Shown: positions 16,500 to 63,743 of the stretch, in pieces | How positions within the stretch are numbered: position 1 is the first letter of the stretch | Layout of the letters: every line of letters begins with the position of its first letter | Translations under genes and position numbers: made by a program | The notes under the pieces: generated by a model | Told to the model about the DNA's origin: nothing | The model's input: the letters and a program-made list of their open reading frames with translations, nothing else | Database searches by the model: none | NCBI GenBank assembly: GCA_030141605.1 | Contig: JAQGDQ010000060.1 | Coordinates: forward strand, 558,001-622,000 | DNA: 64,000 bases | Reading direction: 5' to 3' | Source of the DNA: Tubiluchus corallicola | Lineage: Eukaryota > Animalia > Priapulida

Positions 16500-18296
16500 C
16501 TATGCTTTAGTTCGATGCGGACATGTCTTCATGTGTCCAGCTAACAAATCTGTCCTTGTAAAAGCCTTGCCACAAAACTCACACTTGTGAGGTTTCTCTC
16601 CCGTATGAGTCAGTCTGTGTCGGGCTAGATTACTCCGCGTCGTATACGATGCAAAGCAAAAGTCGCAGAAAAATGAAGCCTTTTTCTTCTTCGCTCGTGG
16701 AAATGAAGATGATGCACGGTGTCTGGAATTGGCTTCATCGTGGGAATGACAGTTTTTCATCAAACTAGCATTTAATTGCAGATTGTAGGAATGACTGTTT
16801 TCAACTAATTCCACGTTTGTTTCTGGGTCATTGGAAAATGTCCTTTGACAGGCTTCCTGATGCTCATTTAAATCCTCATCAGTTGCAAACACTTCGTTAC
16901 ATTTATAGCATGACTTTCTGAAATTTTCAACACATGGTACAACTTCAGCTTCTTCTTTCACTGAATCACTAATGTCATTGTCAACATCTTCGAGAGTCGA
17001 ATTTAGGAACGGAACCGCTTGCGGTTCGGGAACACTTCGTTGCGTAGGCATCAGTTCATTCTCCATCGTAATAATTCCACTTTGAAAGCTCGAGTTTGGC
17101 ACATCTTTGACAAAATTCTCGCAGTCAGCAATCTTGTTATTTGGTGTCTCCTTTCCAGTATCATTAAGCAGAGTAAACTCATCAGCATAATGTGGTTGTA
17201 AACATTCCTGCTCTAAATGAACATCTTTGGCAGTCGTATGTATTCGGCTGTGTTGCATATAAGAGCCCTTGCTTCTAAAATGTCTTCCACAGATTGTGCA
17301 CGAATAGTAAGCTCGACTAACATCAACAGAATGTGAATCATGAACTAATTTGTGTCGCTTCAGCGCAAACAATGTATAAAACGCAGCTTCACACTGGTCA
17401 CACTTGTGAGGTCGCAATTGCCCAGAACTTCGCAAAATCGACACAGAAGGCAGGTTTCTCACACTTTTCTTTAGGGTATCTTCACCCGACTCTGTTGAAC
17501 ACTCACCAGTCATTTCTACGCCCGAAAGATCTTGCAGGGCCGAATTGTTTGTCTCTAAATTATCTAAGCCATGCGTGCGCAAGTGCTTCTTCAGTGTACT
17601 TCGTGCACGGAATCGTTTACTACACACATGGCACAAATGAGATTTTACATTCGTGTGTATTGCCATGTGAGTTTTAAGTACGTCTATGCGACAAAACCTT
17701 TTTTGGCACACAGAGCAACGATATGGTTTTTCCCCTGTATGAACACGTAAATGGCGTCTCAGTCCTTCTCGACTCGAATATTTAAAAGCACATATCTGGC
17801 ACTTGTACATTCCGCCTTGCATCCTATGCAAAGGTATACTTCTTGATAAAATATTTTGCCTGCCATTACTTGATAAGTTAACAGGATGTTCATCAAGCTC
17901 AGGTGCTTCCGAGCTATTATAATACGAAAACGCGTTATTACTTCCGATATCAGGTGCATTGACTTCTGCACTAATATTTGGATGTAGTTCTTCTGAATAC
18001 TGGGAATAGTCACTTGGTTCTATTTTAACTTCTAAAAATGATTCTTCAACACGATCAGCAGGTTTTACGATTTCATCACAGTTCTCACTGTCACCAAGCT
18101 CTATCCATTGCGTGTCAAAAAGTTTTGCAACAGCATTTTCACCTTCCAGTTCAGAATGATCGGAAAAGTCTGGATTGTTCCCTTCGTTAACCAAAATTCT
18201 GCAGTGCATATACTTGCTGTGTTCAAGGAATGAAGTTTCATTGTGTAGATATATCGAGCAGGCTGTGCATTTGTAGAACAGAGATACCTTTGCCAT
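16500..18296 (-). CDS. Multi-C2H2 zinc-finger protein (about 9 fingers in dispersed clusters)
   Basis: Intact ORF with HTGEKPY/H linkers; acceptor tttttcattttcag before 18318; in-exon ATG at 18296 (MAKVSL). Confidence 0.92.
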   Translation of the reverse strand: MAKVSLFYKCTACSIYLHNETSFLEHSKYMHCRILVNEGNNPDFSDHSELEGENAVAKLFDTQWIELGDSENCDEIVKPADRVEESFLEVKIEPSDYSQYSEELHPNISAEVNAPDIGSNNAFSYYNSSEAPELDEHPVNLSSNGRQNILSRSIPLHRMQGGMYKCQICAFKYSSREGLRRHLRVHTGEKPYRCSVCQKRFCRIDVLKTHMAIHTNVKSHLCHVCSKRFRARSTLKKHLRTHGLDNLETNNSALQDLSGVEMTGECSTESGEDTLKKSVRNLPSVSILRSSGQLRPHKCDQCEAAFYTLFALKRHKLVHDSHSVDVSRAYYSCTICGRHFRSKGSYMQHSRIHTTAKDVHLEQECLQPHYADEFTLLNDTGKETPNNKIADCENFVKDVPNSSFQSGIITMENELMPTQRSVPEPQAVPFLNSTLEDVDNDISDSVKEEAEVVPCVENFRKSCYKCNEVFATDEDLNEHQEACQRTFSNDPETNVELVENSHSYNLQLNASLMKNCHSHDEANSRHRASSSFPRAKKKKASFFCDFCFASYTTRSNLARHRLTHTGEKPHKCEFCGKAFTRTDLLAGHMKTCPHRTKA

Positions 18297-18667
18297 ATTC
18301 AACGTGCGAAATAAAAACCTGAAAATGAAAAACTGGATAAAATTCATGCAATCCAAATTTCAAGATTTTATTTTTCCTAATCACTGACAACTGTGCACTG
18401 GTGATAATAAAATACAATTGTAACTTTTCCAATTTATGTATTTCACATAAAATTAAAACTTCACAGTAAATTTAACCTAATAATTATAAGGGCATTGCAG
18501 GTGATATTGAACGTTTTCATTGACATGAGACATCACGTATTTTCTTTTGATCTTATCTGTCAAGCTACAACGTTCAATACAATACATCAGGGACCCAATT
18601 TTGGTAAAGTAGACTTTGACACTGTGAAATGTGATTTAAGTGCCGCTGCCAGGAGATTGCTGCTTAG

Positions 18668-34939: not shown

Positions 34940-36257
34940 TATACGTAAAATGTCATAAAGTTGAAATCGGTGCGTTTCAAAGGCGTGTTGGGAGCCGTTT
35001 GGGCCACTGCGCCAAGTAGACCACTTGATGCGCTAAAAGTAGTGTCCTACATGGGCAGCCCAAGTAGGACACTAGCGATTTTTGTCGAGAAACTTGCTCT
35101 GGCAAAACTTGCTTCCAGTTTATATTACCATTGTTTATAAGTATTGTTATGACATAATAAAGCATAAAACAAAATTTCTTTTAGAAATGGATATTCCTTG
35201 GCAATTGACAAATGCATTTCTTACAATAATTTCATCATTATGATTAACTCCATTAATATATCATAACATTAAAACTAGTATCTAATGCTTTAAAGAGAGA
35301 AATTCTGCACACAGTTATTACAGAAATAATTGCAAATTTAACAGACAGACAGATGCTGCTAAGCCTTCACAACACCAAAAAGTAATTTTTAACATTTAAG
35401 AAAAGCAAGGATAATTAGTTTTAATATTATCAGTAGTATTGTAACATGTAGGGCACTGTCCTACATGGCTCGCTAGCCCATGTAGGACACATAGATCGCT
35501 AGAACGTTTACTTATAAGAAAACAATTATTTGCCCAAGAGGTAGTGAAACGGATCACCTGTTTGTGAAGTGAGACAAAATCAAAAATGATATACCTTAAA
35601 CAAATGTTGAATTCGCAAAAAAGTGGGGTTTTTTCACTTCAACAACATTAATATCGAAACCAAATTTAATATTGTCCGTTCTACCAGCTCAGAATAAAAT
35701 TCTTTTATTTTATTAGATGTATAATAAATTATTCAACGTGTATTAACGTTTTTAATTATTATTATTACATAAACAAGCACAACGGACGGTGTCAGTACAC
35801 TTAACGACTGAATTCACGACCTGTCTCTAGTGTCCTACTTGGGCTAGCCCAAGTAGACTTGGCGCAGTGGTCCAAACGGCTCCCAACAGGCGAAACTACA
35901 GAAACATTTTGGGTATTAGATGGCCAAAGAAAATTTCAAACAAAGATCTATATGAAAAAATAAAAGAAGAACCTTGGACAATAAAAATATGCCGTTTAAG
36001 ATGGATTGGGCATATGCTTAGACTACCTGATGATATTCCAGTGAAGATAGCTCTTCAACAAGCCATAGAACCAGCTAAAAAACCTGCAGGAGGACAAATG
36101 TTAACATATTTTGATTTTGCACAGAAAGATTTAAACACTTCAGCATTGATCCTTAGAAATAAATGTACTTGGGGCATTGCGGCGAGCAGGGAGTCCTGGC
36201 ATAGGGAGGTGAGCAGAATCATGTCACTGGACGTGTGATTCATTGGATGATGATGAT
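34940..36257 (+). mobile_element. 5'-truncated RTE-clade LINE 3' end (interrupted by the 34986-35888 insertion)
   Basis: Removing the insertion restores VEIGAFQRRNYRNILGIRWP...RLRWIGHMLRLPD; ends in a (GAT)n tail. Confidence 0.85.
34986..35888. mobile_element. Non-autonomous TIR element with TGT...ACA ends and 4-bp TSD (Ginger-like)
   Basis: About 32-bp TIRs tgttgggagccgtttgggccactgcgccaagt / acttggcgcagtggtccaaacggctcccaaca; TSD ggcg at 34982-34985 and 35889-35892. Confidence 0.85.
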
Positions 36258-37409: not shown

Positions 37410-37843
37410 CCATCTATTTGCTTTAGCATAGACCTGGATGTTCAATATTTCATCACACAGCAGCAGACTTGTGCAGACTGGCACTTATTGTCAACAGGTT
37501 GCTTAATCTAAGCCATTAAGTCAATGTTAGCCATGAATCAGAAAAAATACCGTCTGGTACAGAGAAATATCTCTGTTTATTTTTCACACATCTTGTGACT
37601 TCTTGCTCAATTCTTTGTTACATTGCAAAAAATGTTTTATGATCTTTCGTTGCTATGTATAATTCTTTTCGGGTACGACATCATATCCTTTCTTTTTAGG
37701 TACGACACCATAGAAACAATGGCTTCATCTTGATAAGGTAACTGTTACCCAACAATATCCAGTTTATAAATTTCACTTTGATAACTGAGCTTAGATAATG
37801 AATCCTCGACACAAAGTAACTGAAACAAGAAGCTGTCCAAGAC
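37410..37843 (-). pseudogene. Decayed, internally deleted copy of the 39255-40399 BEN exon
   Basis: The acceptor (ttttatcacttag|GTCTTGGACAG) and about 100 bp of upstream intron are paralogous to 40390-40490. Remnants MVSYLKR and FMANIDLMA*IKQPVDNKC match VLSYLKR and FMDNIELMAQIKKAADAKC. Contains stops and frameshifts. Confidence 0.85.
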
Positions 37844-38429
37844 CTAAGTGATAAAACCATTGATACTTTTAAAACTACAGATATTTACATAATGTACATT
37901 TGATTACATGCTCAGGAATAAAAATAATGGTTGTTGTAGCAAGTGTATATATCATATCTAATGTTTAGATAAACATTTTTACATTATTATATTTCATTTT
38001 AGTAATAGTTTACAGTTCATTTAATGCTTGAGAACGGATTATTTGCTTTTACTTTATTTTTTATGGGAATAAGTGATTCGGCACTCAACCAAATAGGTTT
38101 TCAGACACTTTTTAGGAACGAATTATGGTCGAAAACAGAGGTATTACTGTACACCAATCCAATTCCAATGTGTGCCTGCCTATTTTCAAATTAAAACAGA
38201 ATGCATGTTCTACTACTACAAATACCAAGTGAGTTCATAAATTATTAAACTTCTGGCTTTACCACATGATTTCAATGAATGGTTTAGTGTTCTAAACTGT
38301 TTTAGATTCAATGAGTCAATACTGTATTTTCAAACTGATGTTCCTAATTTATCACCAACTTGACAAGGAGAAGTTTTAACGCTGTTTGAAATTTAACAAA
38401 GCCAGTGAACAAACGTGTAATTTTCCATT

Positions 38430-39120
38430 TGCGCGAACAGTGTAAACTGTCAAACTAAAATTGACAAACAAAAACTCTCAGCCTATAAACTGACGCACGT
38501 TCAGATGACGTAAAATGTTACTCCGTCAAACTCTGGTAATAACTATACAGGAAGGGGTGTCAGTCAAATTATGGTGCCAACATGAAGACGTGCTTTGTCG
38601 TCTATAGGTCCAGCTTGCAAGATTGAAAAGAGAAATTGGAAAAGAAAGAGTTAGAAAAGTTTGGATGAAAAAATAACTACAGTGAAGAATTGAAAGAGGC
38701 AGTTACAGCCTGATTTACAAAAATTTAAACATTGGGGTGTCGCGTGACTTTCTGAATTATATGCGTATGCCACACTTACAATATTTGACTGTTTATTGCA
38801 AGAAGTTGAATTTAACTAATCAACGTCTGCATAACACATCTACAGTACTGTAGCAAAATGTTTAGTCAAGTGGAAGAAAACAGTATAGCAAAATCAAAAT
38901 CTCCTTTGTACTACCATTGTTCGCGAAAATGATCACTACCATTGGGCCCCTGCGCGAAAATGATCAATCGGCATATGATGTTCGAACAAGGGGATGCTAT
39001 TACTGCTGAGTCTGAGTTTGTCAGTTTCGCTGTTTACACGATCAAACTAGTTTGCCAAACTAAAACTGACAAAGAAGTTTGATGAAAAAACTGATTATTT
39101 AAATGAGTTTAAACTGCTTT
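38430..39120 (+). mobile_element. PIF/Harbinger-derived remnant with transposase N-terminus
   Basis: 38641-38790 translates RKVWMKK*LQ*RIERGSYSLIYKNL...DFLNYMRM, resembling the Harbinger transposase N-terminal W..WL.RR..RG.Y..L...F.N..RM pattern. Flanks carry imperfect inverted gtgtaaac/gtttacac and tgacaaac/gtttgtca motifs. Confidence 0.6.
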
Positions 39121-39254
39121 ACCGATACACGAATATTAATATTATGTAAGTCATAAATAAAAGTGAAAAAGAGTAAAAACATCCTAGGTTAAATCTCAAA
39201 TAGAAGACTCGTCCTGATCTAAGCTGGATTAATAATTCACCACCCTAATTTGTT

Positions 39255-40399
39255 TTAAAGGAAAATCCGCTTCTGGACACTTGGAGACCGTGTTTTATCG
39301 CGCAGCCATGTGCAATATCGACACTTTGCGTCAGCTGCTTTCTTAATCTGAGCCATCAGTTCAATGTTATCCATGAATCCTGGAAAATACTGTCCGGTGT
39401 AATGAAATATCTTGTTCATTTTTCCCATGTCCAGCGACCTCTTGTTGGATTCTCTGTTCCGCTGCGAAAAAATGTTCAAGCGAAGGCACGAATCAGCGAG
39501 AACATCTCGCGTGAAGAAAACGTCTAACAGCTTCACGACAAAATGCTGCGGGTTCGTAACAATTGTGCTGACCTTGTACACCTCCTCGGCGATTGTTGCG
39601 TCGTCGTCCACTTCCAGTTTAATTTCATCTTTTTGCAAAAGCGAACACGCCACAGGAAGAGGATGCTGATCTGAGTTGATGGAAATGTTATTTAATAAGT
39701 CACTAGGTGACATACCCGGTTGATGACTGAAAGTAGCTCCGGGAAATAAATTACGCTGAAATGTTTCTTTAGGAAATGGTATTTGAATGGGCACTAATGA
39801 GTAATCTTTCTGTGTATGTTGCTCTGGAGTATCACTATTAAAGGCAGTACTATATGGAGGTGCCAGAAATTGTTCCGACTCTTCAGTCAATACAATGCAG
39901 TTGTCGTCGTCGTCAGTTTCTTGTTCAGCACGAATTTCACTTCCACTCGGTTGGCTTGTCACAGGACCGTCATCTGCAAACTTTTGACTATGAATCACAT
40001 CAAGGATCTGATCCAGCTTGTTCGACATTTCCGCGCGCTCTTTTCCGGCGATTTTCTGATTGTTCATTATTTTCCTATGATTCTTAAGAAGAATTTGTTG
40101 TTCATTGATCATCCCGGCTGATAAATTCATTACCGATGTCAAAGTTTGTTGTTGCTGGCTCATCATCTTGCCTTGTTCATGTACAATTCTTTTTAGGTAC
40201 GACAACACAGAAACAAGAGACTCTTCGTCTGGTGAATCTTTTAAATGATAGAGTTCTTTAACTTCTTTTCCTTGGCGAGACGATTGTTCTTCAACAATAT
40301 CCACATTATCAGTTTGATCTTCACCAATGGACTTTGATAGAGAATCTACGGCCTCTTGACTCTGACGCATCGTGACTGGAGAGCGGAACTGTCCAAGAC
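39255..40399 (-). CDS. Coiled-coil plus BEN-domain terminal exon B (alternative last exon of the NAP gene and/or stand-alone gene from the ATG at 40370)
   Basis: Acceptor ttttatcacaaag|GT, open in phase 1; C-terminal BEN signature PQHFVVKLLDVFFTRDVLADSC...KRSLD...YFP...IKKAADAKCR. Confidence 0.88.
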
Positions 40400-40809
40400 C
40401 TTTGTGATAAAATCAACAATACTTTTAAAACTACAGATTTGAATATCATACGTTTGGTTACACAGTTAAAAATATAATTAGTTGTTGTCGTTACAAAGAA
40501 GACTCAATAAAAACAGTATTTCCGGTTACAATAATCAAATTATCACATGGCTCTCTTTAAATTAAGAACAGTTCTACAGTAGCGCAAAAGTACGTAAATC
40601 CAAAATAATAACAATGTAAAGTTCAGTAAACAGTTCCAAGTTCTAACAAGCTTTAAAGAGGAAGAAAAGGCAATTCTAAAGTATATCTCAAAAAACTTTC
40701 CACACAAATTGTAATTACCTAATGGTTGCCTGCTTGAAAGACTTATGCATCTAGAAAAGAAAATTCTTAGTAATTTAAAATGTTCCCGCCAACTGGTAAA
40801 ATGCCTCAC

Positions 40810-41000
40810 CTTCCCAGCGTGCACCAAAAAATGTATTTTGATCTTATTGCCAAGATAAAGTAACTTGTACTTTTGCCTAATTAGTGAATCTATGCTACGA
40901 ATGTCTCGATTGTTTTTTTAAACTTGATGCAAAATTGTCTAAACTTGTTTCAAATGACTTATCGTCAAAATGGCTGCGCCTAATGGTTATCGCGGGAGTT
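40810..41000 (-). promoter_or_regulatory. Possible internal promoter and first exon for BEN exon B
   Basis: caaaatggctgcgcc (YY1-like) and tcgcggga at about 40966-40998; strong donor AAG|gtgagg at 40810. Confidence 0.35.
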
Positions 41001-42036
41001 AAACTTTTCAAGTTTTTACAGAGTTCCTATTAGTACTAGGTTTGGGTGCAAGTGATACAAAATTTCAAGATTAATTTTTTAGCTCTATGTAAGTAAAGGC
41101 TTTTCTTGTGCTTTAAAAGCAAACGAAAAATATTTTCTTTCTGTTGTTTTCATCAAACTTTAAAAAGTACAGGGCCAACAATCAACTGTAGACAGTAAAA
41201 CACATTGCAAGGTAATATAAACTAAAACTGTAAATGCCAAGCATGTAGAAAATTACCTACATTACCTTCAAGTGAACACTTAATATGCTATGCAAAAATG
41301 CATTTGTCTGTGAGCCAAGTGTAGGCTTACTAACTTCACAGGCGTACTTAATACCCAAGCTAAAAATGACAGGTTTGGATAATAATGTCTGAAATAAACT
41401 TCTTTGAAACAAAACTGGAGTCACCCGTGTAATAAAGAAACACAGTCCCAGTACGTCAATTCAAAATTATCAAGTCAAACTATCAATATGACCTCATATC
41501 ACACTCAATTTTAAAAATAGTGAGACGTATTTATAAGACAGCTAATCCGAATGCATGATTCATTGGCTAATTGCCTTGCTTCTGATTTATTCTAAAATAC
41601 TATTCTTATTTGCATTGTTGCACAAAAGCAACATTGCCAGTTTAAATAATAAAAACATATAAGTTAATTAAATCTGACACAAATTAAAACAGAGTTTAAT
41701 GCTGACTGATATAATTAATTTGGCAAAAAGTTCTTGAGTCAAACTTATTATGTTTAGATCACCATAAAGAGTGATCTAATTAAGGTGCAATGTTCTAAGA
41801 CAAATGGGCATTTTTTAAAAAGTTTTGACAACATAACTGGCTCACAGCAATTATACTGTACAAAACAAACTCACTTAAGCCGAGAACACGCTCATTTATC
41901 GAACTACCTTTCTTGATAAAATTCAGTTATTACTGTACAAGACTAGACAAGAATATTACCATCCTCTTAAATATTTACTAATGCAGGCGCATTGTCCTGA
42001 AAATATTTCATTACTAAGACTAGACAGGAAATTAAC

Positions 42037-43127
42037 CTAAACGTTAACTAATGCGGATGCATTGTCCCGAAAGTATTTTGCAGCATGTCTGCATTTGTTA
42101 TTGATTCCATCCCTGATGTCAATCCACTGAGTGGACATACAACCGGGAAAGAAGTACTCCAACAATCCGTAAATTTTCCTCATCCTGTTGGTATCCAGCT
42201 TCCGTTTTGGCAGCCGGGCGCTTCCAGCTCCCTCCGACGGCAATCCGGAAGTAGTGCCGCTATACCCCGCTATGTTCGATTCCGCCATTTCCTCTTTAGA
42301 GAAGAAGTATGGTAACAGCTTAAGAGCAAACAGCCTAGGTGTCCTTGTCACATCCACAAGAGTATGCAGCGTAGAGATGTCGGAAAGTGATGCAGGCAGA
42401 TCTTCCGTCGGATTTGGATCAATGGTTGGTACAAACTTAGTGGAGTTGCAGGAATTGTCATCAACTGTCCCTTCGACTGCGCAGACTCCTTCACAATCTT
42501 CTCCATCGTCGAGCTGAATGCAGTCCACCGCTTCTACCTTCACCGGTTCGACAGTCAGAGCTGTCTGACTAGATTCGTGCGTGTTCTTGCACAGGTTTGT
42601 TACCACAGAGCACGATTCTGCTGGCAAATTCTCTATAAATGATGAAGGTAGAATAGAAGAGGAATTTGAAACTGCTTCTTTTTCAACTAACGAATATGAC
42701 GACGGCAAAGACGGCTTTCTCTGCCGGTGCTTTCGACTCACGTCCTTCACACCTTCACGCAAACAAACTGCCATATCTGGTTTATTTGCTATATTTACAT
42801 TTGCAGGTAGCAAACTGTCAAATGGATTTTCGCTCACTGAAACATATTCTGGTTGTCTGTGCATCAATAACAAACTACAAAGTTGATCTAACTTGTGTGA
42901 CAAACCGAGGACCTCAGAACTGCTCTGAATTTGCGAGTTTTTCACAGTTTTCAGCTGTTCTAAAATAGCCGATCGCTCCTCTTTTGCCTCCACTTGGTTC
43001 TGGAGTATTTTATTCAGTTTCAGATCGGCTACTTTTTCAGTTTTGGCAGAAGGTCTTCTTGCATGCGCATGTTCGAGAACCTTGCATTCACCTTCTCTTT
43101 TGGTGGCGTGTTTTCCAAATCCCGAGC
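42037..43127 (-). CDS. Coiled-coil plus BEN-domain terminal exon A (BANP-like BEN)
   Basis: Acceptor tttatttcctttcctcaaag|GC, open in phase 1 with no early in-frame ATG; BEN signature PRLFALKLLPYFFSKEEMAESNIAG...KRKLD...FFP...WIDIRDGINNKCR. Confidence 0.9.
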
Positions 43128-46100
43128 CTTTGAGGAAAGGAAATAAAAATCACTATGAAACAGAAACCGAAGAAGAATGATAACTCGTTTTTTAAGTGAG
43201 ATTAAAAACACTACTAGAGTACAAATACATATTAAAGTTAACTCAAAGTACCGAAAAGCCTAAAAACGGTAGAGTTTAGAATACGCTATATACAAAATTT
43301 CGAAGTAAAACGGTTAAAACAGAGGTATGTAAAATACAAAGAAAACTTATTAATACCCGCGAAAATGTACAAATATAAAGTATCACACAGTAATAAATAC
43401 AATAATGGTTCTCAGCTGTTAAAATCGTGTACATGTTGCTATGATAAGTAAAAATACTATTAAAAAACCGAAAATTTGTGAAGCTGTCACAAGTGCTTTT
43501 AATTGTCCTACTTAGTGGGAATTCTACACATGCACAGCATTAACGATGTGAAATAAACAGACATTGAAAACATAATATTAAAACTTCACATCTGCAAAGC
43601 CTGCTTTAAGACAAAAATCTTTATGAAATAATGTGAGTGTTGCAACACATGAATGGTTTTATAGTGTGCCTATACAATATTCACAAATTACATTGCTGCA
43701 CTTAATTGATTTATTACAATAAAACCATGAAGTTTTTGGATTAACATCTGCAAACTTTGCAAAATTGGCTATGAACCTGACTTAATAACCATATTTAAAA
43801 ATGCAAGAAACTGAAAAATGATATGTGTGCTTGCATAGTAAAAACGTCCATAAGTTGGCCTAGCTATTTACGTATCCTGAATCTCTGTTTCATGCGGACC
43901 ATTTTGATACCAAGCTCATCGCTCTGTGTTCTTTCTAAGCTGAGATAATTCACATTGAAGTTGAAGTGCAGGTTAAGCAATGAAAAAACACAATCTTGCG
44001 AAAATCACTTTTAAAGTTTGTCATTGTTTTGTGTCGAGTCTTTGCAAAATATTTAGCAAATGTACAAAAGGTTGGGTTAATTGTTATAGACTTTGCAAGA
44101 ACACATTAAAGTTAGGTTTAAATCCAGTTGATGGCCCTTCCACACTACGACGTGGGCTTGGCAACAGAAAAACCACAAGCAAAATGAATGCTTCCATGAG
44201 CTACTAGCGGAGTTTAAAAATAGAAGTTTTTCACAATTGCTGTTCTAGTCTTTAGCCAGAAAAGTGAGTACTTTTTGAACATTTTCTCGATGATTTGATT
44301 CTAGGATATAAAACTTCAAAAAAGTTAGCATTTGTTTTTATAAAAAACAAAAAAATCGACATTTGACCAAATTTTCGTGCACACTACTTTGAAGCATCAT
44401 AATGTAGTTTTAGCTATGCCGACTTATGGATGGTTTTGGTTTGAAAGCACACATAAATGATAAATTAACAATGATAAAACTGAAAATAAAACTGGTACAT
44501 CAGGTATCAAAACTCACTGAAGTACCTAATAACAGCATTTTCATCCTATTGTAAGTAAAAGAGTTCCCCACAATTTTTGCATATAAACATTTTTTATGTT
44601 AGCTAATAAGTTTACAAATTTATTTACAGCATACGTGGTGCTAAGTACATCTAATTAAACTAATATTGTGCACATTTGTAATGCTTATTACTGACAATTG
44701 AAAACTGTGGGTTAATTACTTTCATTCCCAAGTTGGCTTGTTGTCGGGCCTATACAATAACTCTGTCATTCATAACACTTGAGTACATTTTTACAGGCAA
44801 ACCAGAAGGCATTCACTCGATTCCCTGTTATTTACCAGGTTAGCTAAACTCTACCTTGTGCCAATCTTATACCCGTATTTCTATGCACTAAGACAGTTAA
44901 GTCTGTTTGAAAATATCACATAATGTCCAACTTGAGATTGAAAGCTACAAATCTGACGTGACAGCAGACGAATTCTTTTAGATAAAGGGCCGCAGACAAG
45001 AAGGCAAAATGTGAGTAAAGGCAGTACTAAGAACAACAGATGTTGTTTGCATGATTCCCTAACAAAGACCGATGATTTCCTAACAAAGAAAAATCTAGTT
45101 CCGCCTCAAGTTATCGACTGAATGCACGAATTTGAAATAATCTTAAAAAGAGGCTAATCGTACTTCGAGAAAATTCGCAATTTTAAAACCTATGAATTGT
45201 CTGTTGGTAAGACCAGGGAGGTTCTACTATGGAAATGAGTAGCAAAAATTAAACATACGGAACAGCATATCTGATTTTTATTTTTATTCAGAATGCTGAT
45301 AAGATTAATCTTTGTTATTAAAACTATCTGCAACCTATAATCTAATTTGGATTGGTCATACATTTTACCATCATGTCATCTCTTTTCATTGCACATCTTT
45401 TTTATCCTGCCCCCAACACCTAACAACACACCATGCAGTTGGGCTGTCCAAGTTCTATCTTTTCGCTCAGAGTTACATCATTTGTTCACTAATTCATTGC
45501 TCACTTGAAAAGTAATTGCGGTAATTTTGTTTTCAGTTTGTGTAATTGTATGTAGTATATCTGATTATGTACTTGTAATGGTGTTTTTGTCTGATAAACA
45601 ATAAACAAAAACATTTTTACTCCTCAGAGGCTAAAAATTTACTCACATTCACTTACGTTTTTCATAAAAACTTGAACTCTTTGCTTGGCTACAGACAGTT
45701 ACTTGACACGAATCAAAACTCGAGAAATACATAATTTAATAAATTTGTACTTAAAAAGTAAAGAGCCTTAAGAATTGCCTAATAACCTTCCAATAACCTA
45801 ACCAATTTCTATTCTTTGTCATCTATCACACAGCTTTTATATTGTGCCTTGATACTTAATTCACTACACAAATATCTCAAAGATTTTTATTTTGCATCTC
45901 GTACATGATGTTTTGTTAACAAGTGTGTACATGTTAACAAGGGTGCTTGACTCCAGGTGAACTAAGTGAGTCATTTGTAAAGGTACTAATTTCTAGGTGA
46001 ACCAAATGAGTCATTTGTAAAGGTATTCATGTCTAGATGAATCAACTGTATCATTCGTAAAAGTGCTTGACTCCAGGTGAACAAAGTGAGTCATTTGTAA

Positions 46101-49100
46101 AGGTGTTTACAACTTCTTAGAATAAAAAACAAAAAGTGGACATGATTGGGAAGACAAGCTAATTATTGCATTAACTAAACCAATGTCACATTTTCAGAAG
46201 AACATCAGCAGCTGATTCTAAACATAAAACAGCTCACTATGCAAGTAATTATTATTCCTAGTTAAAATTCTAATAGCTGAAATTTAGCAAAACAGAAACT
46301 GTTTGCAGAAGAGAAAGCAGAAGTAGTAAAGGACCCTAACAAACATCAAACAGATACAAGTGTCAACCTACCAGATGAATTGTGCTTTTCTTGGCAGTTA
46401 GCATCACTTTGGTCTACAGTAGCACCGCGGCTGCTTTCATAATCATCAGCACCTCCGCCTTCATCCTCGACTCGACTGAGATCACTGATATTATCACCTG
46501 TTATGATGGTCACACCATCACTGTAATGCAAAAGAATATAAATTTACATTACACTATGAATGTTTACGAGAGTACATTGATGACAATTAATTTGATTGTT
46601 TCAATTTTCTAACGCAAATCATGTAGTTCATTAAAATCCAAGTGAAGTCATTTGTAAAGGTTAATAACTCCAGGTGAACCTAGTGAGTCATTTGTAAAGG
46701 TGCTTGACTCCAGATGTACCAACCGAGTCATTTGTAAAGGTGCTTGACTCCAGGTGAACCAAGTGAGTCATTTGTAAAGGTACTCATTTCTAGGTGAACC
46801 AAGTTCATTTGTAAAGGTATTCATGTCTAGATGAATCAACTGTATCATTTGTAAAGGTGCTTGACTCCAGGTGAACCAAGTGAGTCATTTGTAAATGTGC
46901 TTGACTCCAGGTGAACCAAGTGAGTCATTTGTAAAGGTGTTTGGCTCTATGAGTCATTTGTAAAGATACTTATCTCTAGATGAATCAAATGAATCATTCG
47001 TAAAGGTGCTTGACTCCAGGTGAAGCAAGTGAGTCATTCGTAAAGGTGCTTGACTCCAGGTGAACCAAGGGAGTCATTCGTAAAGGTGCTTGACTCCAGG
47101 TGAACCAAGGGAGTCATTCGTAAAGGTGCTTGACTGCAGGTGAAGCAAGGGAGTCATTCGTAAAGGTGCTTGATTTCAGGTGAAGCAAGGGAGTCATTCG
47201 TAAAGGTGCTTGACTCCAGGTGAACCAAGGGAGTCATTCGTAAAGGTTCTTGACTCCAGGTGAACCAAGGGAGTCATTCGTAAAGGTGCTTGACTCCAGG
47301 TGAAGCAAGGGAGTCATTCGTAAAGGTGAGTCACTCCATGCGAATCAAATAAGCCATTTGCAAAGGATTATCCAACTTTTGATACACTAAACTGCAAGCC
47401 AATATTCAGCATTCATTGACAGTCTGTTTGACAAAGCAATGTCTTTTAAGAACTGATCTACTGAACCCGTAGAACATTCGCATGCACATACAAAGTAATG
47501 ACTTCTAAGAACAGATCTACTGAACCAGTAGAAGATTCGCATGCACATACAAAGCAATTTCTTCTAAGAACAGATCTACTGAACCAGTAGAAGATTCGCA
47601 TGCACATACAAATACCATTTTCTTAATGTGGCAAACAACTGGGGGACAATAGGATAAACGAAACTGCCTCTTTATTGATCAGGCTCAACAATGCCTAACT
47701 TTAGTCATTAAAAAACAAACATGAAACCACGACTATTTTCCTCCTCCCAATACAATATGAACAATATCACGAAGATCAGTGTGTAAATATAAAAAAAACA
47801 CGTGTTAAACATTTCAGTAGACAACAGCCTCATTTCTAGAGCTCAAAACAACGTCAACAACACTAACTTTAATCAAATCCGTATAGTTAAGCATACTTTA
47901 AAATTCAAGTGTAAAAAACTTTCATGTACAAAGACTTAAATAATACAAAATTAAATCTACCTATATTGATATTAAATTAAACACTCATGAAGTTATCTAA
48001 GATTTCTAGGCAATAAAGATCAAGTATGTTTTACACTGAAATGTTTGAAGTAAAAATAAGGATACAGAATTGTTAACATTTTAAATATTTGGTTTAGCAG
48101 CCCTAGAAACACAGAGAATTGGCTTCCTACTAATATACAGCTAAAATCATAAATACATAGAATTAAAAATATGGCTTCATATATAAAATTAAGAATATGA
48201 TTTCATATTTACATGATTGATTCTTTCTTCTCATCAGGCAGAGACTGCGGAGGTATACAGGTATGAGGTAGTTCAGCATCATCAGGAGAATCGTCATTTG
48301 TTTGCGACGAGAGTGCGTTGACAGAATATTGCGCAGGTTCATCTATTGCAGTTTTAGTTCCTGAGATGTCCATCATAAAATACTGTAAAGGGTCTAACCA
48401 AATGTCATTGCAGATAGCCTAGAAATTAGACAGTGTTTTACTACTTAGACATGTTATGAGTTATGACAACAAACTGGTAAAAAGTAGTGGACATGTCTAA
48501 TTGTCTATCACCCTTTTTTCATCCAATTTCACACTTGATAAAGTTTAATAAGACACCCAAGAGCTGGATCATCCTAATAAAAATGTTGTGGAAGGACCAG
48601 AACGTAGTTTGCTGTCAAGGATAACCCTTTAATTAGACAGTGAACAGTCAATGGTGTCTCAGCCATGTACAGCATCCCCCAAGTACGTAAAAGGCAACCA
48701 AGCCAGGGCAGTATGCTACGTAAGACATGCCTGAAGTTTTTCTACAGTCACTCATCTATTTAGTGGCCAAGTTAGGTGTTGCTTGGCTTTGGTCACGCTT
48801 GACCTGGGTATTAAGTGAAAGGGTTAATTTACTGGCCAGGTTAAGTGTTGTTTAGCTTTGGTCACACTTGACCAGAGTATTAAGTGAACGAGTTAATTTA
48901 CTGGTCAGGTTAGGTGCTACTTAGCTTTGTTCTTGCATTACCTGGGTATTAAGTGAACGAGTTAATTTACTGGCCAGGTTAGGTGCTACTTAGCTTTGGT
49001 CACGCTTGACCTACGTATTAAGTGAACGGGTTAAAAGTACTTGCGGGCAGTTAACTGTCTCCTGATGATGTAAACATCCAAACTTAACTTAGGCACCTCT

Positions 49101-52100
49101 CCTAGTTTATTGCTAATCACAACCATCTCCATCAGGTACATCTTGGCACTGAGCATCTGACTCCAGTTTGAAAATTGCCAATCCACAAAAAGAACTGACT
49201 GGTGTCAGAGGAACCTACCTGCGCCACAACATCTTTTGACAAATCACAGCAACTATCACTTAGCAACCACGATATAAAACTTGTTGGCAGGTGAGCACGT
49301 TTCTTGCCACCTTTAACATCCGTTGATTTCATCTCGTCCCACTGGATGTCACTGTGTGAAATGCTGGAATAACCTAAACAAAACAAAATGTGTCTAAAGG
49401 AAAACCGGACGATTGTTTAGACTCAATCTCATTTTAATTTAGTGTCCAAACTACATTTTCTTGCCTATAAAAGTTAGCAATTGTTTCTTATAATTGAATA
49501 ATTAGCTTAGAAAGTTAATTAATGACAACTGAACACAGCTATCGTCAGAAACTAACGACAGTTTGTGCAATGGCAGGCATCTTCCCTTGCATGCCAAGCA
49601 CGTTTGCGCAAGTGCTACAGTACTGTTTAAATGCATGATGTCACGAAAATGGGCTTTAGGTCAGAAACTAACACAGCAGTTCATGATCATGGTTATCACG
49701 GTACCGCCTTCTATTTGTCGGCCATGCAAATGTGACAAAGAGCCTACGTTGCCTAAATTTGAGTACCCGAGGTAATTATTATTTAATCTAAGCTTTGATT
49801 TAAAAAAAGCCACTGTAGTTTTCAATATTTTAAAGCATTCTTTATTCTGAACTAATATTTACACAATCGACCGGTTTTCCTTTAAATGCTTTACTAATTT
49901 AATAACAAAACATTAATAGCTAAAAAATAACTGTCTTCACGCACTAAACACAAATTTCAAGTTCTAAAAACAGCAAAAATTAGTTCACCGTAAACAGTTA
50001 TATATGTAACAGGTTCATAAACACGTCAGTGGTAGATTCTACATGCATGAATACAAGTTAACAGAAAGACAATTGCTCCTGTGTGATGCTCCAATAAAGC
50101 AGAACATGTGAAATGCTGGGGTAATACTTATATGAATAGAAATCAAAAGCCTTTTGTAAACTGGCAAAGTATTCCTGGCTGTATCTGTGGATCACGATTC
50201 CTACGAATTAAATCCCTCATCGCTAAAAAACAAACCACTTGAAACATTCTAATTCGATTACAATCTTGTTCTTGTAATTCGATATCATGATTATTCTTTT
50301 GCAGGAATTTTTTTTAGTGTTTTAGAAATATTTTTCAAACATTGCAGCATTGAAATATAGCCTATAAACTTTTTCAAGGCTTTCATCGCTGTCTGCCATT
50401 GTCGTACTTGCCAAACTATTTTTATAGACACGTACATTCATTAACTACTCTATCACTATGTCAACTCATACGTCACACGAAAACAACTAAGCCCTAGTTT
50501 GCAACGCTGTGGTTTGCAATTGTGCGCATTGTGTAAGGTGAGAAAAATGAAAAAAATGCAAGAATTCGATTTATTTGTGCTAAAACACTGTCTTTTAATC
50601 AGTGTGCAACAAGTATATTTTGCTCTCGATTAACTGAATTACTGTTCAATAGCCGATTATATGGATTTATGGTTGTAATCTCGATTAATTTGATTAATCT
50701 ATTAATTGCCCATCACAAACATCTTAATAAAACTAAGACTAATGCAATACACTTTTATAGCGTGTGCGATAAAAAGCAATTTATACACAAAAAAAGTGTA
50801 ACTAATTTTATCAAAACAACTCAGATTCGTCAAGGCCACACAACCTATCCAAAACCATACACCTCAGCTACCTGACCAGGATTTGGATTTCGGCCGCTAC
50901 TCCTTAATCCTCATGCTCCTCTAGCCAGGCGCACAGACAAACATACAGCTTCGCTAGAGCGACAACAAAGAGAAAACTGAACATCTCTCTTAACACAGCC
51001 CATTCAAACAAACTCACTGCATACAAAAAGGAAGGAAAAAGAAAAGGAGAAGAAAGAAGAAAAGGAGAAGTTAAACAAGAAAGTTCCGAGAAAGAAATAC
51101 CTTTTTGTCTGCTAAATTACTTAATACAAACATCCTAACAAACTTCATTAACTCCCTTTCGGTGCACAATATAAAAAATACTCCATCTATGTGTTACCTA
51201 TGGAAGATGCACAATCTATAAAATCCTTTGAGATAGTTTCTCTCTCCAAATAAGGATTCTTGCTGAAGTGAAAAACCAGCCGCATCTTTTTGTTGTCCTC
51301 TAGCCTCTTTACATCTATCTAAAATGAAAACGGTTGTGGTTGACTGACAAAAATCTCTGTACAAAAACAAGTATCAAAAATTTCCTACGAATTATATGCA
51401 GACTACATAATCATAGACACTACAAAGACACTGAGCTTAAAAAAAATTCACTAAATGGAGTGCAAAAATTCGCTGCCCATCTTGGAACGTTTCGCTGTTT
51501 GCTGGTTCATCTACTAATTATCTGAGAAGTTCAAACCATCCCCGTAGGTCAGCTTTAGCCGTTTCACACTCGAGTAGGGCTGTAATGATACACCTAAGTC
51601 ACGATACAATACATATCGCGATACTAACCTCACGATACGATACGTATCACGATACACATTGAGTTAACGTTTACAGGCTTCAATTAAAAAAAAAACAGAT
51701 TAAGGTGTTGGCATATTATATGCATATATTAGATTTTTCAAACAATTTTAAAATCTGTAAGTGCTAAAATAATTCAGCAAACTGTTTGATTTCAGTTTAT
51801 ACTCTTGTATTATTTGCATTGTAAGCCACCGGAAATGCAAAACATTTCAATACTTTTTCATTTAAAATATGTTGGTGCATTTTCTAGTTCACATTTGCTG
51901 CAAGCCATTTCAGAAACGTATAAGTAAAAACTTAATTAGTCTACTATGCACATTATTATAAACACATTGCGCTTTCAACGGCTTCGCTTCTGGCTGGCTT
52001 CTAGCAGCAGGTCTCATTATGTCAAGGTCAAGCTGCCTATATATACTGCGCTCACTACACTACTTGTTAGGTATCTACAACACATGCTACAGCTGTACCT

Positions 52101-54358
52101 GGAATTATTTAACACTGTTTTTATCAACAGACAGTCGAGCTTGTGCTAAATATCAGTGATTCACATTATTACGATACTGGTGCATTTTACGATACATGTA
52201 TCATTACAAAAGGTATCACGATACATTGTTACATCGAGTGCCAAATTTTTCAATATCCGCAACTTGCATTAACTAATATAGCAGAGTAGCACCATCTCAA
52301 ATGAGTTATCATGGCGTCAGTTAGTTATTCATTGTACTTACATGATCTAGGAACGTGATGCACTCCATATCGGCTTTGTCACCTACTGAAGATATTAACC
52401 GATGATTTGACAACTGATCGAGTAACATTAAGGAAAATATGTACAAATAAGAACAAAGAACAATACTGGAAACAAGAAAGATTCTCCATTTTGTCAAATG
52501 AGTACCTACATATCTTGTTAAGAACATTTTGAACAAGTTTGTATTTAGAATCGTGATAGCATAATGAAGTCTGGAAAACGGCTCTTCCAAATAAATGAAT
52601 AGATATAGAGAAAATGACATTCACAAAAATATAACTAAAAAAATCAATAAACTAAACGGATGAAATAAAAAAATGCTAAGAAATATTGGGTAGAAGTCTA
52701 CCCAGAAGTGAAAGTGCTGAAAATTTTTTAATGTATAACTATTTTCTTAACATGTTAGTATGTGAAGAAAATAACATGTTTGTTACCATTACTACGTACT
52801 ATTACTATACAAGACTTAGAAATGAGTCTCCTTATTTGGTAGCATTTGGAGCTTAAATTAAAAAAACATCGTGGAGATCTCATTGAAGTTTATAAAATAT
52901 AAATTAGAAAAGACATTTTGCCGGAAAAAATTTAGCTGTTGATGCTAAAACTAGAGGACATAGTTTAAAACTGTTTAAAGAGCGGTCATGTCTTGACATT
53001 GTAAATATTCATTTTCTGTGAGAGTAGTGAATGAATGGAATAATTTGCTTGTCATGATGATTCAAACACTAACCGTAGTAGAGTTTAGATCCTTAATCGA
53101 CAATTATTTTGCGGAAAAATATAGGATTTCTATGAGGTACATGCTTAACCTCTAATCATGACAGTGTAAGAGTTTTTGGCTTAGTAGCTAGCAAAATGAT
53201 TTAGACTTAAACAGATCAGAGCTCAAAAATGCACCCTGCAAAATCACCAAGCTTGCAGGACTTGTGATTAAATTTTCCATCTGTTCAACTTTGTTTATCC
53301 TTGCTTGAATTCATGTATAATTATCATAGGTTTTAATTATAGATTTCAGTTTGGCCTGTAGGTATTAGATTGCATGTCTTTAATATGTTTAGTTAAGAAG
53401 CCTAAAATGTGTTGTGTAAAGAAAGTTGTGGCTACATTTACCTGCTTGTTTTGATCTTGTCGACCATTCTGCCTCTTGTTAAATAACATGTGATTCAACA
53501 ATCATTACAGTACTGATGTCTAGCTCACCTGATGACTTTTTAGTCCATTTGCTACCTTATCTTGCTGACTTTATATTTACTTAATTAACACGTTTACTAC
53601 TCTATTTATGTTTACATATTTCTATAGATGTTTCTGAAATGCTACAGAGAAAAATAAACTTCATTTGATTTGAATTTGAGCACATTTTTCAAGATGTCAT
53701 TGCAGGCCTTATAAGTTTGTTAGTCACTCACAAGTGGTCACTGTATGAAAAGTGTGTAAGTTGCAAAATGCATTAGAATTGACGAAGCAAAAGGAAACAA
53801 AAGTGGACTTGAGTGTAGAAAATGCCTACCCAGTACAGTTACAGGCAATGTCTAAGTACATTACTTTGGATAAATATAAATTGATTAATGCTACATGGGT
53901 ATAGTCAGCTGTTACTGAATACAATATAGTTGTTGTCTTGCTGGCAGGTAGTCCACTTTTTATCCAAAATCCAGATCTGTGTATGAGAGCCAATCAGGCC
54001 GATCAGTTTTGTATTTTGTTCATTAATGGTGACTATCTTTGATTGTTGCACGGGTTACATACTATAAGGATACAGCTTTTGCCCAAAAATGAGGTATCTT
54101 TTTGATAACAAGGCTTCTCTTCTCTAAAAACGGTTTTCGTTGTTTGTCGAATTTCCGCTTTATAGAAGCAATTTCTTCTTTACATTTAATGTCTATTAAC
54201 TGCAGATCAGTTTGACAAGCCGCTATTTCATTGATTTCACTGCTAAATTTCTCTTTTTCACAGTTACCATTAACCGGTGACAACATCCTAAAACCACACT
54301 TTCTGTGCCTTTCGCCGAATTTAGGAATCTTTCTTGGAGGCTCTAGTACCAACGCCAT
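42037..54358 (-). CDS. SET/TAF-I-like (NAP family) histone chaperone fused to a C-terminal BEN domain; exons 54358-54074, 52413-52342, 51318-51198, 49373-49219, 48418-48213, 46520-46372, 43127-42037 (about 692 aa)
   Basis: NAP motifs RKPFLEKRSLVIKKIPHFWAKA | LSNHRLIS | FHFSKNPYL...SKDF | IQW...SFISWL | ICNDIWLDPLQYF. All introns are GT-AG with consistent phases 0,0,1,0,2,1. Total 2079 nt open to the stop at 42037. The NAP exons are very well supported; the join to BEN is inferred from phase. Confidence 0.8.
43825..44452. mobile_element. About 630-bp TIR element (GTGTGC...GCACAC), copy 1
   Basis: About 42-bp imperfect TIRs; colinear with 60153-60777. Confidence 0.85.
45943..46108. repeat. 40-bp minisatellite (gtgcttgactccaggtgaaccaagtgagtcatttgtaaag), about 4 copies
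   Basis: Same unit as 46640-47365. Confidence 0.9.
46640..47365. repeat. 40-bp minisatellite, about 18 copies
   Basis: Unit gtgcttgactccaggtgaaccaag(t/g)gagtcatt(t/c)gtaaag; more homogeneous towards the right. Confidence 0.95.
47432..47612. repeat. About 59-bp tandem repeat x3
   Basis: aagaacagatctactgaaccagtagaagattcgcatgcacatacaaa recurs three times. Confidence 0.9.
48760..49035. repeat. About 69-bp tandem repeat x4
   Basis: tactggccaggttaggtg...gtattaagtgaacgagttaatt recurs with a 69-bp period. Confidence 0.9.
49398..49881. mobile_element. Kolobok-like MITE
   Basis: TIRs AGGAAAACCGGACGATTGT / ACAATCGACCGGTTTTCCT flanked by ctaa / ttaa (TTAA-type TSD). Confidence 0.8.
51575..52236. mobile_element. 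hAT-like MITE (TAGGGCTGTAATGATAC end, cgatac subterminal repeats)
   Basis: Left TAGGG terminus with cgatac repeats; degraded right end with the same motifs. Confidence 0.65.
52414..54073 (-). other. U12-type (minor spliceosome) GT-AG intron
   Basis: 5' site GTATCCTTAT; branch-like TTTTCCTTAAT about 13 nt before the AG; no long polypyrimidine tract. Confidence 0.85.
52862..53130 (+). mobile_element. CR1 LINE 3' fragment
   Basis: RGDLIEVYKI...TRGHSLKLFKERSCLDI...FSVRVVNEWNNL, the canonical CR1 ORF2 C-terminus. Confidence 0.85.
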
Positions 54359-55176: not shown

Positions 55177-57506
55177 AACCCCACGCATCTTTTACACTTA
55201 CAGTCTGCAGTGACTGTAATTGCTTATAGCTGACACAAGATGATTAGGTGTACAAATTAAGGACATTTCTGATAAACTTTTAAAAGCCAACGTCCCAATT
55301 AATTCAGCATTTAATCTATTATTTAATTATCAGAAGTGGGTTTTGCAGTATTAATTATATTAAAATGTATATTTTTATTGTATTAGAAAATGGAAGAGTA
55401 TTTGATATGGAGAATCATCCTGTCTTGTTGTTGTCTTTAGTGTTGATATTTCACTAATTATAATGTTTTGTAAAACAACAATCTCTTCCGTTCTGAACTA
55501 GCATAATGTGGCTTTTTTCATATGTTTGCTAACTGGCTTAAGATTGAGAAAGACCACGAAAATGTATTAAGCTCGTTGGTAGGTATAAATAGCATCTGAC
55601 TAATTACCATACTGTTCTGTGTAATAAAATGTTACTGAAGATGCTAAAGAAAATTATGGCTGGTACATCATCCTCTACATGAAGAATTTAAATTTCTCTC
55701 ACACGAAGCAAGATTAAATTTACCCTTTCAAGAATTTTCACTTTAAATTCTCAGTTGTGAAAAGCAGCCATTTCAATAAAAACATTCAATGGTAGCTAAA
55801 ACTCTAAACAATTTTTAATTTTTTAAGCTTTATTTAAATTGTACCATTTAGATTTATTTTATGTATTATTATATATATAGATTATTTGTTTGTAAAATTG
55901 AATTTATTTTACAGTTGAAAATCTATTGCTCTAATTGCTTTTCACTAATCTGAGCAAAGTTGAAACAACAAATTTCATATATCTCATGTGTACTATATAT
56001 CGCCAATAAAGATGTCCATGTATATATTTATGTTTGTAGATAATCTAGCATTATGTCATAACCTGCGCATGCGCAAGTACTCCGGTCACTGCATTTTTGA
56101 GAGTGAAAAAAGGTTGTTACAAAATTATAGCTAACTTACCGGCTAGCAGCCCATTCAGTAGTGATAAAACAACACAGCAAGATAAAACAACTTCTAAACA
56201 CCACATATCTACAGTAGTTTAGCTTTGATACATGTAAAGCTTTTATATGTGAAGTTGAAGACATTCCACGTGTCTGGAATACCGACCATAAACAGTGAAA
56301 ACTAATGTGGTTGCTGTTCAGGTTACATGCTGGCATTTTGTCATGTAAATCACATGGGGTAAACGAAGTTAGGTGCAATGACACATTTTGCCCAGGGCCT
56401 ATTTCGGGGGCTTATTTTTGCTAGCATCACTCGCCGATGTATTAGCAAACTTGTGACAGTGATGAAGAACATTGAGAAAAAAGAGGAAGAGAAGCAGAAA
56501 AGGAGAAAAAAATAAAAGCAAAATTTCTGATACGCAAAACATTGTTGTGTTGTTACAGAATAAACTTCTATTATGTACTGTAACTGTAATTTTTTCTGAA
56601 AGTATTAGTGTCGATGTCATTGTCGTCATCATCATCGTCATCAGTATCACCACCGTCATCATCTCTACACTTGAATTGGCACTTTGTGATTCTATAAAAA
56701 ACAATGCACATTCAAGCATAAATACATGAGCAAATATTGTCTAATTTTTATGCATTATGCACATCACACAAGCATCCACACATACAGTTTTTGCAAATTT
56801 TTGGCCCTCCTTCACTGTATCAGTACAATTTGAAAGTTGTATAATGTACAAAATTTTTTGTAAAACATGTATGAGCATTGCTGTCAAATGGTGTCATTTG
56901 ATGTCATTTGAGAAACCATTACCAGTATTTAAAACATGGCAACTAAGAACATATGTACATTTACGCAAAATGGATTTAGAAAGGCTAATATCATTTTCTA
57001 CGCAGATTGCAGAAGATCGCGTACCATATGTATAATTGAAGAATTTTACCATAGCTCTGTAGTGCCCAGATTTCAGGTCATTAAAGATATACAAGTTATA
57101 TTTCACAGAAAAAACGTAATGCCCATTATAGCCTCATAGATCAAAATATTTATTTAGTAGATTTTGCCTTAGCAGACTTCATCAGCCGAATGTAGTAGAT
57201 AAAATAACAGTATGTATCAAAGAAAGAAAATTGTGTCTAAACATCACTGGTTTGAAGTACAATAAGTTAAAGAAAGAGTATAATTGACTGCATAAGAAGT
57301 TTTACCAGCACATGCTATTCAGGTATGTCAATTTTTCTTTTTGTCAATCTTCTTTAATTAATTTTATTCAATTTTATTAAAATAAAAACAGAATGTTTTT
57401 ATAATTCTATTATTGCTACGCTGTATTTGTTTGTAAATGCAATTTTTGTTTACAAAGTTCTTCCAGCACAAGCCAGCCTAAAAAAAAGAAAAATTAAAAG
57501 ATGTCA

Positions 57507-57529
57507 TAATAATAATAATGATAGTGATG

Positions 57530-57622
<93 letters not shown>

Positions 57623-57662
57623 TAATAATAACAATGATAATAATAATAATAACAACAACAAC
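57507..57662. repeat. (AAT)n microsatellite
   Basis: Visible run. Confidence 0.97.
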
Positions 57663-57697
57663 ATTAAAATTGAATGAATGTTTAACACAAATGTTAC

Positions 57698-63743
<6,046 letters not shown>

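Follow-up and report, generated by a model that had tools for sequence, protein, structure and literature searches.

A predicted gene joining a NAP domain to a BEN domain in the priapulid Tubiluchus corallicola, with a collinear protein annotated in Priapulus caudatus

Histone chaperones of the NAP family are thought to reach their loci through partner transcription factors or complexes. One example is TSPX (TSPYL2; also CDA1, CINAP and DENTT), which is described as working together with CBP and in complexes, REST/NRSF among them (PMC13023821). TSPX has seven exons, of which exons 2-5 encode the NAP domain and exons 6-7 the tail, and it ends in an acidic domain of about 290 amino acids (aa), without a BEN domain (PMC6498724). 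SET/TAF-I beta lacks a DNA-binding domain, and its acidic tail is short. In NACC1, NACC2 and BANP, the BEN domain is C-terminal and an oligomerisation module is N-terminal, namely BTB in the first two and a coiled coil in BANP. The available part of one review names BTB, C2H2, MCAFN, SCLM1 and RNase T2 as BEN partners, with NAP not among them (PMC8887127). Here we describe a gene on the minus strand of a 64,000-nucleotide (nt) stretch of Tubiluchus corallicola DNA (assembly GCA_030141605.1, contig JAQGDQ010000060.1, positions 558,001 to 622,000; hereafter the window), in which the partner module of the BEN domain is a NAP domain. An earlier note on this DNA had proposed the fusion, and we consider it very probably real.

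The window DNA is AT-rich (GC about 0.35). Seven exons join into an open frame of 692 aa with a single terminal stop, and the order of the encoded parts is NAP domain, acidic linker, coiled coil and BEN domain. The 692-aa model was picked from 24 open exon combinations, which vary only at the borders of exons 3 and 4, because the NAP alignment is preserved in it. The exit phases of exons 1 to 6 are 0, 0, 1, 0, 2 and 1, so the phases given in the earlier note, exit in phase 2 for exon 5 and phase 2 to phase 1 for the 149-nt exon, were reproduced in the joined model. The exons and the related features downstream are as follows.

54074..54358, minus strand: exon 1, with the ATG, a basic N-terminal motif and the NAP backbone (dimerisation) helix; Pfam NAP E 8.5e-4
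52414..54073, minus strand: intron 1, of the U12 (minor) type; 5' site GTATCCTT, branch point TTCCTTAAT at 52435
52342..52413, minus strand: exon 2, 72 nt, start of the NAP earmuff; part of the open joined frame
51198..51318, minus strand: exon 3, 121 nt, NAP beta-sheet; Pfam NAP E 9e-5, best PDB match SET, E 0.017
49219..49373, minus strand: exon 4, 155 nt, NAP earmuff; aligns inside the joined model
48213..48418, minus strand: exon 5, 206 nt, end of the NAP domain and start of the acidic linker; phase-2 donor
46372..46520, minus strand: exon 6, 149 nt, acidic linker; phase 2 in, phase 1 out
42037..43127, minus strand: exon 7, the terminal exon BEN1, with a long helix (coiled coil), a disordered linker, the BEN domain and the stop
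39255..40399, minus strand: BEN2, a second coiled-coil and BEN exon, with a phase-1 AAG/G acceptor
37460..37937, minus strand: a decayed third copy of the BEN2 exon, with the acceptor at 37842; blastn, four pieces, 74-93% identity

A second genome supported the fusion. A HMMER search with the BEN1 exon alone gave four matches at E<=0.001 among 1,835,955,588 representatives, and one of them was XP_014664401.1 of Priapulus caudatus, a predicted and uncharacterised protein of 665 aa (LOC106806813; UniProt A0ABM1DWT0) that carries both Pfam NAP (83 bits) and Pfam BEN (32.6 bits). Since the query held no NAP sequence, the presence of a NAP protein among the four matches is strong evidence for NAP and BEN in one protein of a second genome. 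XP_014664401.1 aligned with the 692-aa model in one high-scoring segment pair (45-685 vs 48-660, E 1e-53), and both proteins have a NAP domain, an acidic linker, a coiled coil and a BEN domain in the same order and at similar length (665 vs 692 aa). They differ in that the overall identity is 26% and the Priapulus NAP domain is more SET-like and more acidic. Hence, the NAP-BEN fusion that the earlier note had deduced from this locus is well supported by a collinear protein annotated in P. caudatus.

The other three matches (P0001, P0002 and P0004) were from assembly contigs of 1.9-5.0 kb and had no NAP domain. The N-termini of P0001 and P0004 are aromatic-rich, followed by K/E and then G, which fits read-through of a phase-1 AAG acceptor, a post hoc reading made from the protein sequence only. 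P0001, which shares 75% identity with the BEN domain of the Priapulus protein, likely represents the terminal exon of a further NAP-BEN gene. In the coiled coil of the BEN1 exon, positions Q65 and L79, both upstream of the first in-frame ATG of this exon, were invariant in all six aligned sequences. Word-based searches for longer relatives with the BEN exon (4702 candidates) and with exon 1 (30 candidates) found none, and these blanks are uninformative because the BEN-exon search overlooked the known 665-aa Priapulus protein. No confirmed relative came from metagenomes (two scans, with 596 and 598 pattern matches) or from viral sequences (24 matches), and there is therefore no sign of a viral origin for this BEN type. 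Among the Atlas clusters, which are those with at least 50 members, the BEN domain matched BEN clusters, and the Priapulus protein matched only NAP clusters. For the full-length Priapulus protein, the predicted structure was of low quality over the NAP domain (mean predicted local distance difference test, pLDDT, 50.8), and its Foldseek matches to SET, with a root-mean-square deviation near 20 Å, rest on sequence.

A hidden Markov model built from three database NAP domains covered residues 42-228 of the 692-aa model in one stretch with 130 bits, which bears out the claim that five exons rebuild a complete, divergent SET/TAF-I-type NAP domain. Pfam NAP was also found on exons 1 and 3 separately, each below the whole-domain cut-off, and exon 4 searched alone gave no match. 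The likeness to SET/TAF-I beta is seen in top or near-top PDB matches for exon 1, exon 3 and the Priapulus NAP domain. For exon 1, the matches were P. falciparum NapS (2e-9) and then SET (4e-8), and for the Priapulus NAP domain, human SET was the top PDB match (E 3e-63). The window NAP domain is closer to the Priapulus protein than to bird TSPYL2-like proteins, with which it shares 25-28% identity. Behind it, the acidic linker of residues 227-329 (103 aa) contains 23 D/E vs 6 K/R, and the Priapulus linker contains 30 D/E in 69 residues. The earlier note had the acidic tail of SET replaced; a coiled coil and a BEN domain do follow, and an acidic stretch persists ahead of them in shortened form.

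An antiparallel homodimer was predicted for residues 36-95, with a score of 0.64 (best control 0.00), agreement between runs in 100% of contacts and pLDDT of at least 88. In calibration, 21 of 30 microbial dimers passed this mark and none of 23 monomers did; among eukaryotic dimers, 17 of 29 passed, and just one of the seven that lacked a solved relative. Since the eukaryotic passes mostly have solved relatives, the result for residues 36-95 may reflect memory of SET. What the prediction shows for the exon-1 helix is thus likeness to SET, in which the helices pair antiparallel.

In the last exon, Pfam BEN (PF10523) was found with 25.0 bits against a cut-off of 23.2. The AlphaFold model of the BEN1 exon consists of a helix at 27-88, a disordered stretch and a BEN domain at 250-360, with pLDDT mostly near 90. 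In the Foldseek search, the BANP BEN domain 7yug came first (E 4.3e-4) and the top 10 ranks were all BEN structures, in agreement with the coiled coil and BANP-like BEN domain described earlier. BANP is also the closest fold, and of its DNA-contact residues, as defined in PMC10206803, N269, K278, K314 and R316 are identical in BEN1, with R320 changed to K and S313 to N. By analogy with BANP, the C-terminal helix of BEN1 would recognise DNA. Certain BEN domains do not bind DNA, for example BD1 of BEND3 (PMC8887127).

Contigs of two sequencing runs, X1 and X2, were compared with the BEN exons, with 40 of 319 rows of differences listed. All seven listed differences between BEN1 and run X2 were synonymous (p ~6e-5 at 25% expectation), which points to selection on the BEN1 frame. 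At 41939-42078, a tandem duplication of 70 nt, with 73% identity, spans the BEN1 stop codon and the 3' flank. Because one X2 contig joins across this duplication differently, the C-terminal residues of BEN1 may vary.

Splice sites were scored with a matrix whose training set was 11 acceptors and 10 donors. Exon 6 ranked first among the 160 open phase-2-to-1 candidate exons in 48150-43250, and just sixth when all 7381 AG..GT pairs were ranked irrespective of phase. Its GC content is 0.46, compared with 0.33-0.36 in the flanking introns, and a held-out codon model favoured its frame by 17 log units (-191.6 vs -208.8 and -235.4). The exon 5 donor was within the top 2.4% of GT sites. Two weak donors inside exon 5 (48259 and 48246, of phases 1 and 2) were rejected after splice scoring. 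The 43127 acceptor of BEN1 has the best pyrimidine tract, with 17 pyrimidines in 18 positions, in the top 0.06% of AGs. BEN1 and BEN2 both begin at the first AG within the open frame, both in phase 1 and both with AAG/G, and GC climbs from 0.25-0.33 to 0.48-0.55 at both exon starts. As the earlier note had stated, the BEN exon has no early ATG; the first in-frame one, at 42864, lies beyond the coiled coil. Over the first 99 nt of BEN1, the codon model tied the model frame with one alternative (-129.3).

Several features of the DNA around these junctions were also observed. At 43029-43127 on the minus strand, a second frame is open across the first 33 codons of BEN1 and contains two out-of-frame ATGs (43070 and 43064). 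A 40-bp minisatellite flanks exon 6 at 46638-47366 (18.5 copies) and 45951-46104 (3.8 copies), and further tandem arrays are present in the neighbouring introns, with units of 59 bp at 47431-47612 and 69 bp at 48758-49034.

Intron 1 links the gene to a particular branch of the NAP family. The motif TTCCTTAAY is unique in the window, and GTATCCTT occurs twice when both strands are counted together, the intron 1 donor being one of these occurrences. A minor intron with a GTATCCTT 5' site is listed for both TSPYL2 and TSPY1, and SET had no whole-word match in the minor-intron gene tables of the eight files covered (PMC6717393 supplements). What the window gene shares with TSPYL2 is a minor intron with the same 5' site; the three letters ahead of this site are GCA in TSPYL2 and GCT in the window. 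Since intron 1 is of the U12 type, and TSPYL2 and TSPY1 are listed and SET is not, the gene structure looks TSPX-like rather than like SET proper. The window gene also has seven exons, with the NAP domain up to exon 5 and the rest in exons 6-7. We take the minor intron of TSPYL2 and TSPY to be their intron 1, at the same codon as intron 1 of the window gene, and the first four intron phases of the window gene (0, 0, 1, 0) presumably match those of TSPY. The U12 intron could instead be ancestral to the whole SET/TSPY branch and have been lost in vertebrate SET.

The C-terminal part sets the gene apart from both relatives. In TSPX this part is the acidic domain of about 290 aa, whereas exon 7 of the window gene encodes a coiled coil and a BEN domain, and no such acidic domain is present. 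SET proper is defined by a poly-acidic tail with no further domain, whereas here the linker is followed by the coiled coil and BEN domain. Judged by these tails, the gene is outside both SET proper and TSPX as defined.

We consider it fairly probable that this is one gene, conserved at least with P. caudatus, which encodes a predicted dimeric chromatin factor with a retained chaperone or chromatin-assembly role. The seven-exon frame is open and contains both domains. The exons would be spliced together, as suggested by the collinear Priapulus model, the phase match and the absent early ATG. The exon-1 backbone helices are predicted to pair antiparallel as in SET, which would present two BEN domains together. 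The C-terminal helix of the BEN domain would then read a short DNA motif, with oligomerisation sharpening the selection, if it behaves as in BANP. In the least certain step, the NAP earmuff and the acidic linker may load or remove histones, or recruit partners, at the bound sites. In T. corallicola, the NAP domain may have drifted towards a scaffold for dimerisation and partner binding, as BTB is in NACC1/2. Of the dimeric, sequence-targeted histone chaperone put forward in the earlier note, the dimer helix (as a prediction) and several BANP contacts stand, and the chaperone role is one that we infer for a charge-neutral NAP domain. NAP-histone contacts depend on acidic surfaces (PMC9128123), and chaperone activity is uncertain because of this neutrality. 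Since SET binds H3 through its central region and can dispense with the acidic tail for this (PMC2676315), histone handling is kept possible.

A number of observations weigh against this reading, either against the fusion itself or against the chaperone role. The Priapulus record is a computational prediction and may be a merged annotation. The Priapulus protein is the only full NAP-BEN relative found: a search with it gave three matches among 7996 scored candidates, two of which were TSPYL proteins of birds that have just the NAP domain. Supports in the BEN tree were low (22-43, except 92 for P0001 with P0003), too low to show one-to-one orthology of BEN1 and the Priapulus BEN domain. The window NAP domain shares just 34% identity with that of Priapulus and contains 28 D/E vs 29 K/R, compared with 38 vs 27 in Priapulus. 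The 43127 acceptor had been called strong, which its pyrimidine tract justifies; it ends in AAG, however, which was seen in 0 of 11 training acceptors, its matrix score is average, and a competing TAG acceptor 25 nt upstream, at 43152, leads to a stop after 21 codons. Given this alternative and the stop reached by reading through the exon 5 donor, NAP-only products would be easily made. Among the 15 listed of 95 joints in contigs of the two sequencing runs over 39000-50900, none was at an exon border, and no read or contig was found spanning 48213>46520 or 46372>43127. Contigs of run X2 cover the BEN1 exon (88-93% identical) and exon 4, the latter ending at the acceptor with 30 unaligned letters. 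That run X2 is RNA is a guess, and its contigs were not used as evidence for expression or splicing.

The alternative that survives best accepts the fusion and takes the NAP domain as just a dimerisation or protein-interaction module, the product being a transcription factor or insulator without chaperone activity. We regard this as unlikely. The dimer helix is kept, while the window NAP domain has lost its acidity and diverged from the Priapulus copy. BANP must oligomerise to reject methylated CGCG, and even an artificial glutathione S-transferase (GST) dimer suffices (PMC11472053); moreover, according to a review, the nucleosome-assembly activity of TSPYL proteins is incompletely demonstrated (PMC13023821). 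The NAP domain would then work like BTB in NACC1/2 and in mod(mdg4)-C. However, the whole earmuff, and not the helix alone, is kept in both species, and the Priapulus NAP domain is close to human SET, acidic and followed by a linker rich in D/E. The BEN exon already has a coiled coil of its own, so that a NAP domain is unneeded for oligomerisation.

A further alternative is that two neighbouring genes lie here. A TSPX/SET-like gene would end at exon 5 or soon after exon 6, next to one or two BEN-solo genes that have 5' exons of their own, and the Priapulus model would be an annotation merge of a conserved pair. Read-through of the exon 5 donor meets a TAA one codon on and gives a 280-aa NAP-only product, and AATAAA/ATTAAA signals are present at 47873 and 47676, but hexamers of this kind are common in the AT-rich DNA of the window, with seven in intron 6 alone. 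The stop behind the 43152 acceptor and the missing reads across the fusion junctions would also suit separate genes, as would the ATG that BEN2 has 10 codons in. BEN1, in contrast, has no in-frame ATG ahead of its conserved coiled coil, and exon 6 is coding in a frame that links the NAP domain to BEN1. Three of the four BEN relatives have no NAP domain in their records; these three come from the short contigs described above, and two of them look like single-exon read-throughs. The Priapulus protein also agrees with the model in the order of its parts and in length. We consider the two-gene arrangement improbable. A decaying duplicate that no longer makes a functional protein is very improbable: the NAP part has diverged fast and a decayed BEN copy is nearby, but the 692-codon frame is unbroken over seven exons, the U12 donor and branch point are intact, and the listed BEN1 differences are synonymous only.

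The single-gene reading has a possible extension in BEN2, which was overlooked in the earlier note, as was the decayed third copy. The BEN2 exon (40399-39255) is located 1.6 kb downstream of BEN1, is 22% identical to it (E 6e-8), and has a Pfam BEN score of 21.7 bits, just below the cut-off. Joined to exon 6, it gives an open frame of 710 aa, and its in-frame ATG is at 40370. Whether BEN2 serves as an alternative terminal exon through splicing, and so provides a second DNA specificity, is about an even question; it could also be a separate gene. Selection on BEN2 is weakly indicated, with 6 of 12 listed differences from run X1 synonymous (p 0.054). It keeps the K-C-R motif. Because neighbouring base-reading positions and the loop differ in BEN2, it would likely prefer another motif or bind weakly, as judged from these residues. 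The third copy has stops in all three frames and includes just ~90 nt of upstream intron, which suggests exon duplication rather than gene duplication.

Alternative last exons are known from mod(mdg4) and lola, which we take to have 20-31 variants, partly trans-spliced, with a BTB N-terminus. In these genes, common 5' exons are joined to alternative 3' exons (PMC6237743), and one isoform of mod(mdg4), C, is a BEN protein (PMC4281564). The window similarly has two 3' exons, both in phase 1 and both joinable to the common exon 6. It differs in having two intact BEN exons and one decayed copy, a NAP N-terminus, and an alternative use that is putative. A tentative and rather doubtful proposal is therefore a mod(mdg4)-like, sequence-specific histone chaperone of the TSPX lineage, in which mutually exclusive BEN last exons would send one NAP dimer to different motifs and isoform heterodimers would read composite sites.

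Other open reading frames (ORFs) were found around the gene. Upstream are the 3' exons of a tubulin-tyrosine-ligase-family gene (57420-63743, minus strand; Pfam TTL), which ends ~3 kb upstream of the NAP start codon and presumably resembles TTLL4. Two single-exon C2H2 zinc-finger ORFs of ~600 aa each are on the same strand as the NAP-BEN gene (16500-18318 and 7342-9094, minus strand), and each has a TTTTCAG/G acceptor in phase 2, the phase of the exon 5 donor, with an ATG 7-8 codons on. Their use as extra alternative exons of the NAP-BEN gene was considered unlikely because each has its own ATG; although joinable to exon 5 in frame, they are probably separate genes with non-coding first exons. 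A broken element resembling a long interspersed element (LINE) at 10214-12812 on the plus strand contains a PHD-like piece (below cut-off) and a reverse-transcriptase piece (Pfam RVT_1), split over several ORFs. The ORF at 35831-36238 had no Pfam match and looks to us like a LINE C-terminus. Four ORFs of the window had no exact-sequence match in the protein collection.

The searched literature, covered mostly by title and abstract and with subscription papers largely outside its scope, contained no description of a NAP and BEN fusion and no paper on the Priapulus protein, so that absence from print is unproven. The earlier note had not recognised the architecture among characterised proteins; no published description was found, and it does exist in databases as an uncharacterised Priapulus prediction. 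NAP-BEN is an architecture of known domains that is undescribed rather than unseen. The locus is probably a real, conserved fusion of these two domains, with a possible twist of variable last exons.

A natural NAP-BEN fusion in two distant genomes would hard-wire targeting into one chain and would give a histone chaperone its own DNA address. With it, one can test whether bringing a NAP dimer to a DNA motif suffices to open or close chromatin there. It also adds a partner domain for BEN that is unnamed in the parts of the reviews covered. The duplicated BEN exon may show a locus of variable 3' exons at an early stage, and the minor intron in common with TSPYL2 and TSPY1 is a hint that their gene structure, which is known from vertebrates, may have arisen before the vertebrates.

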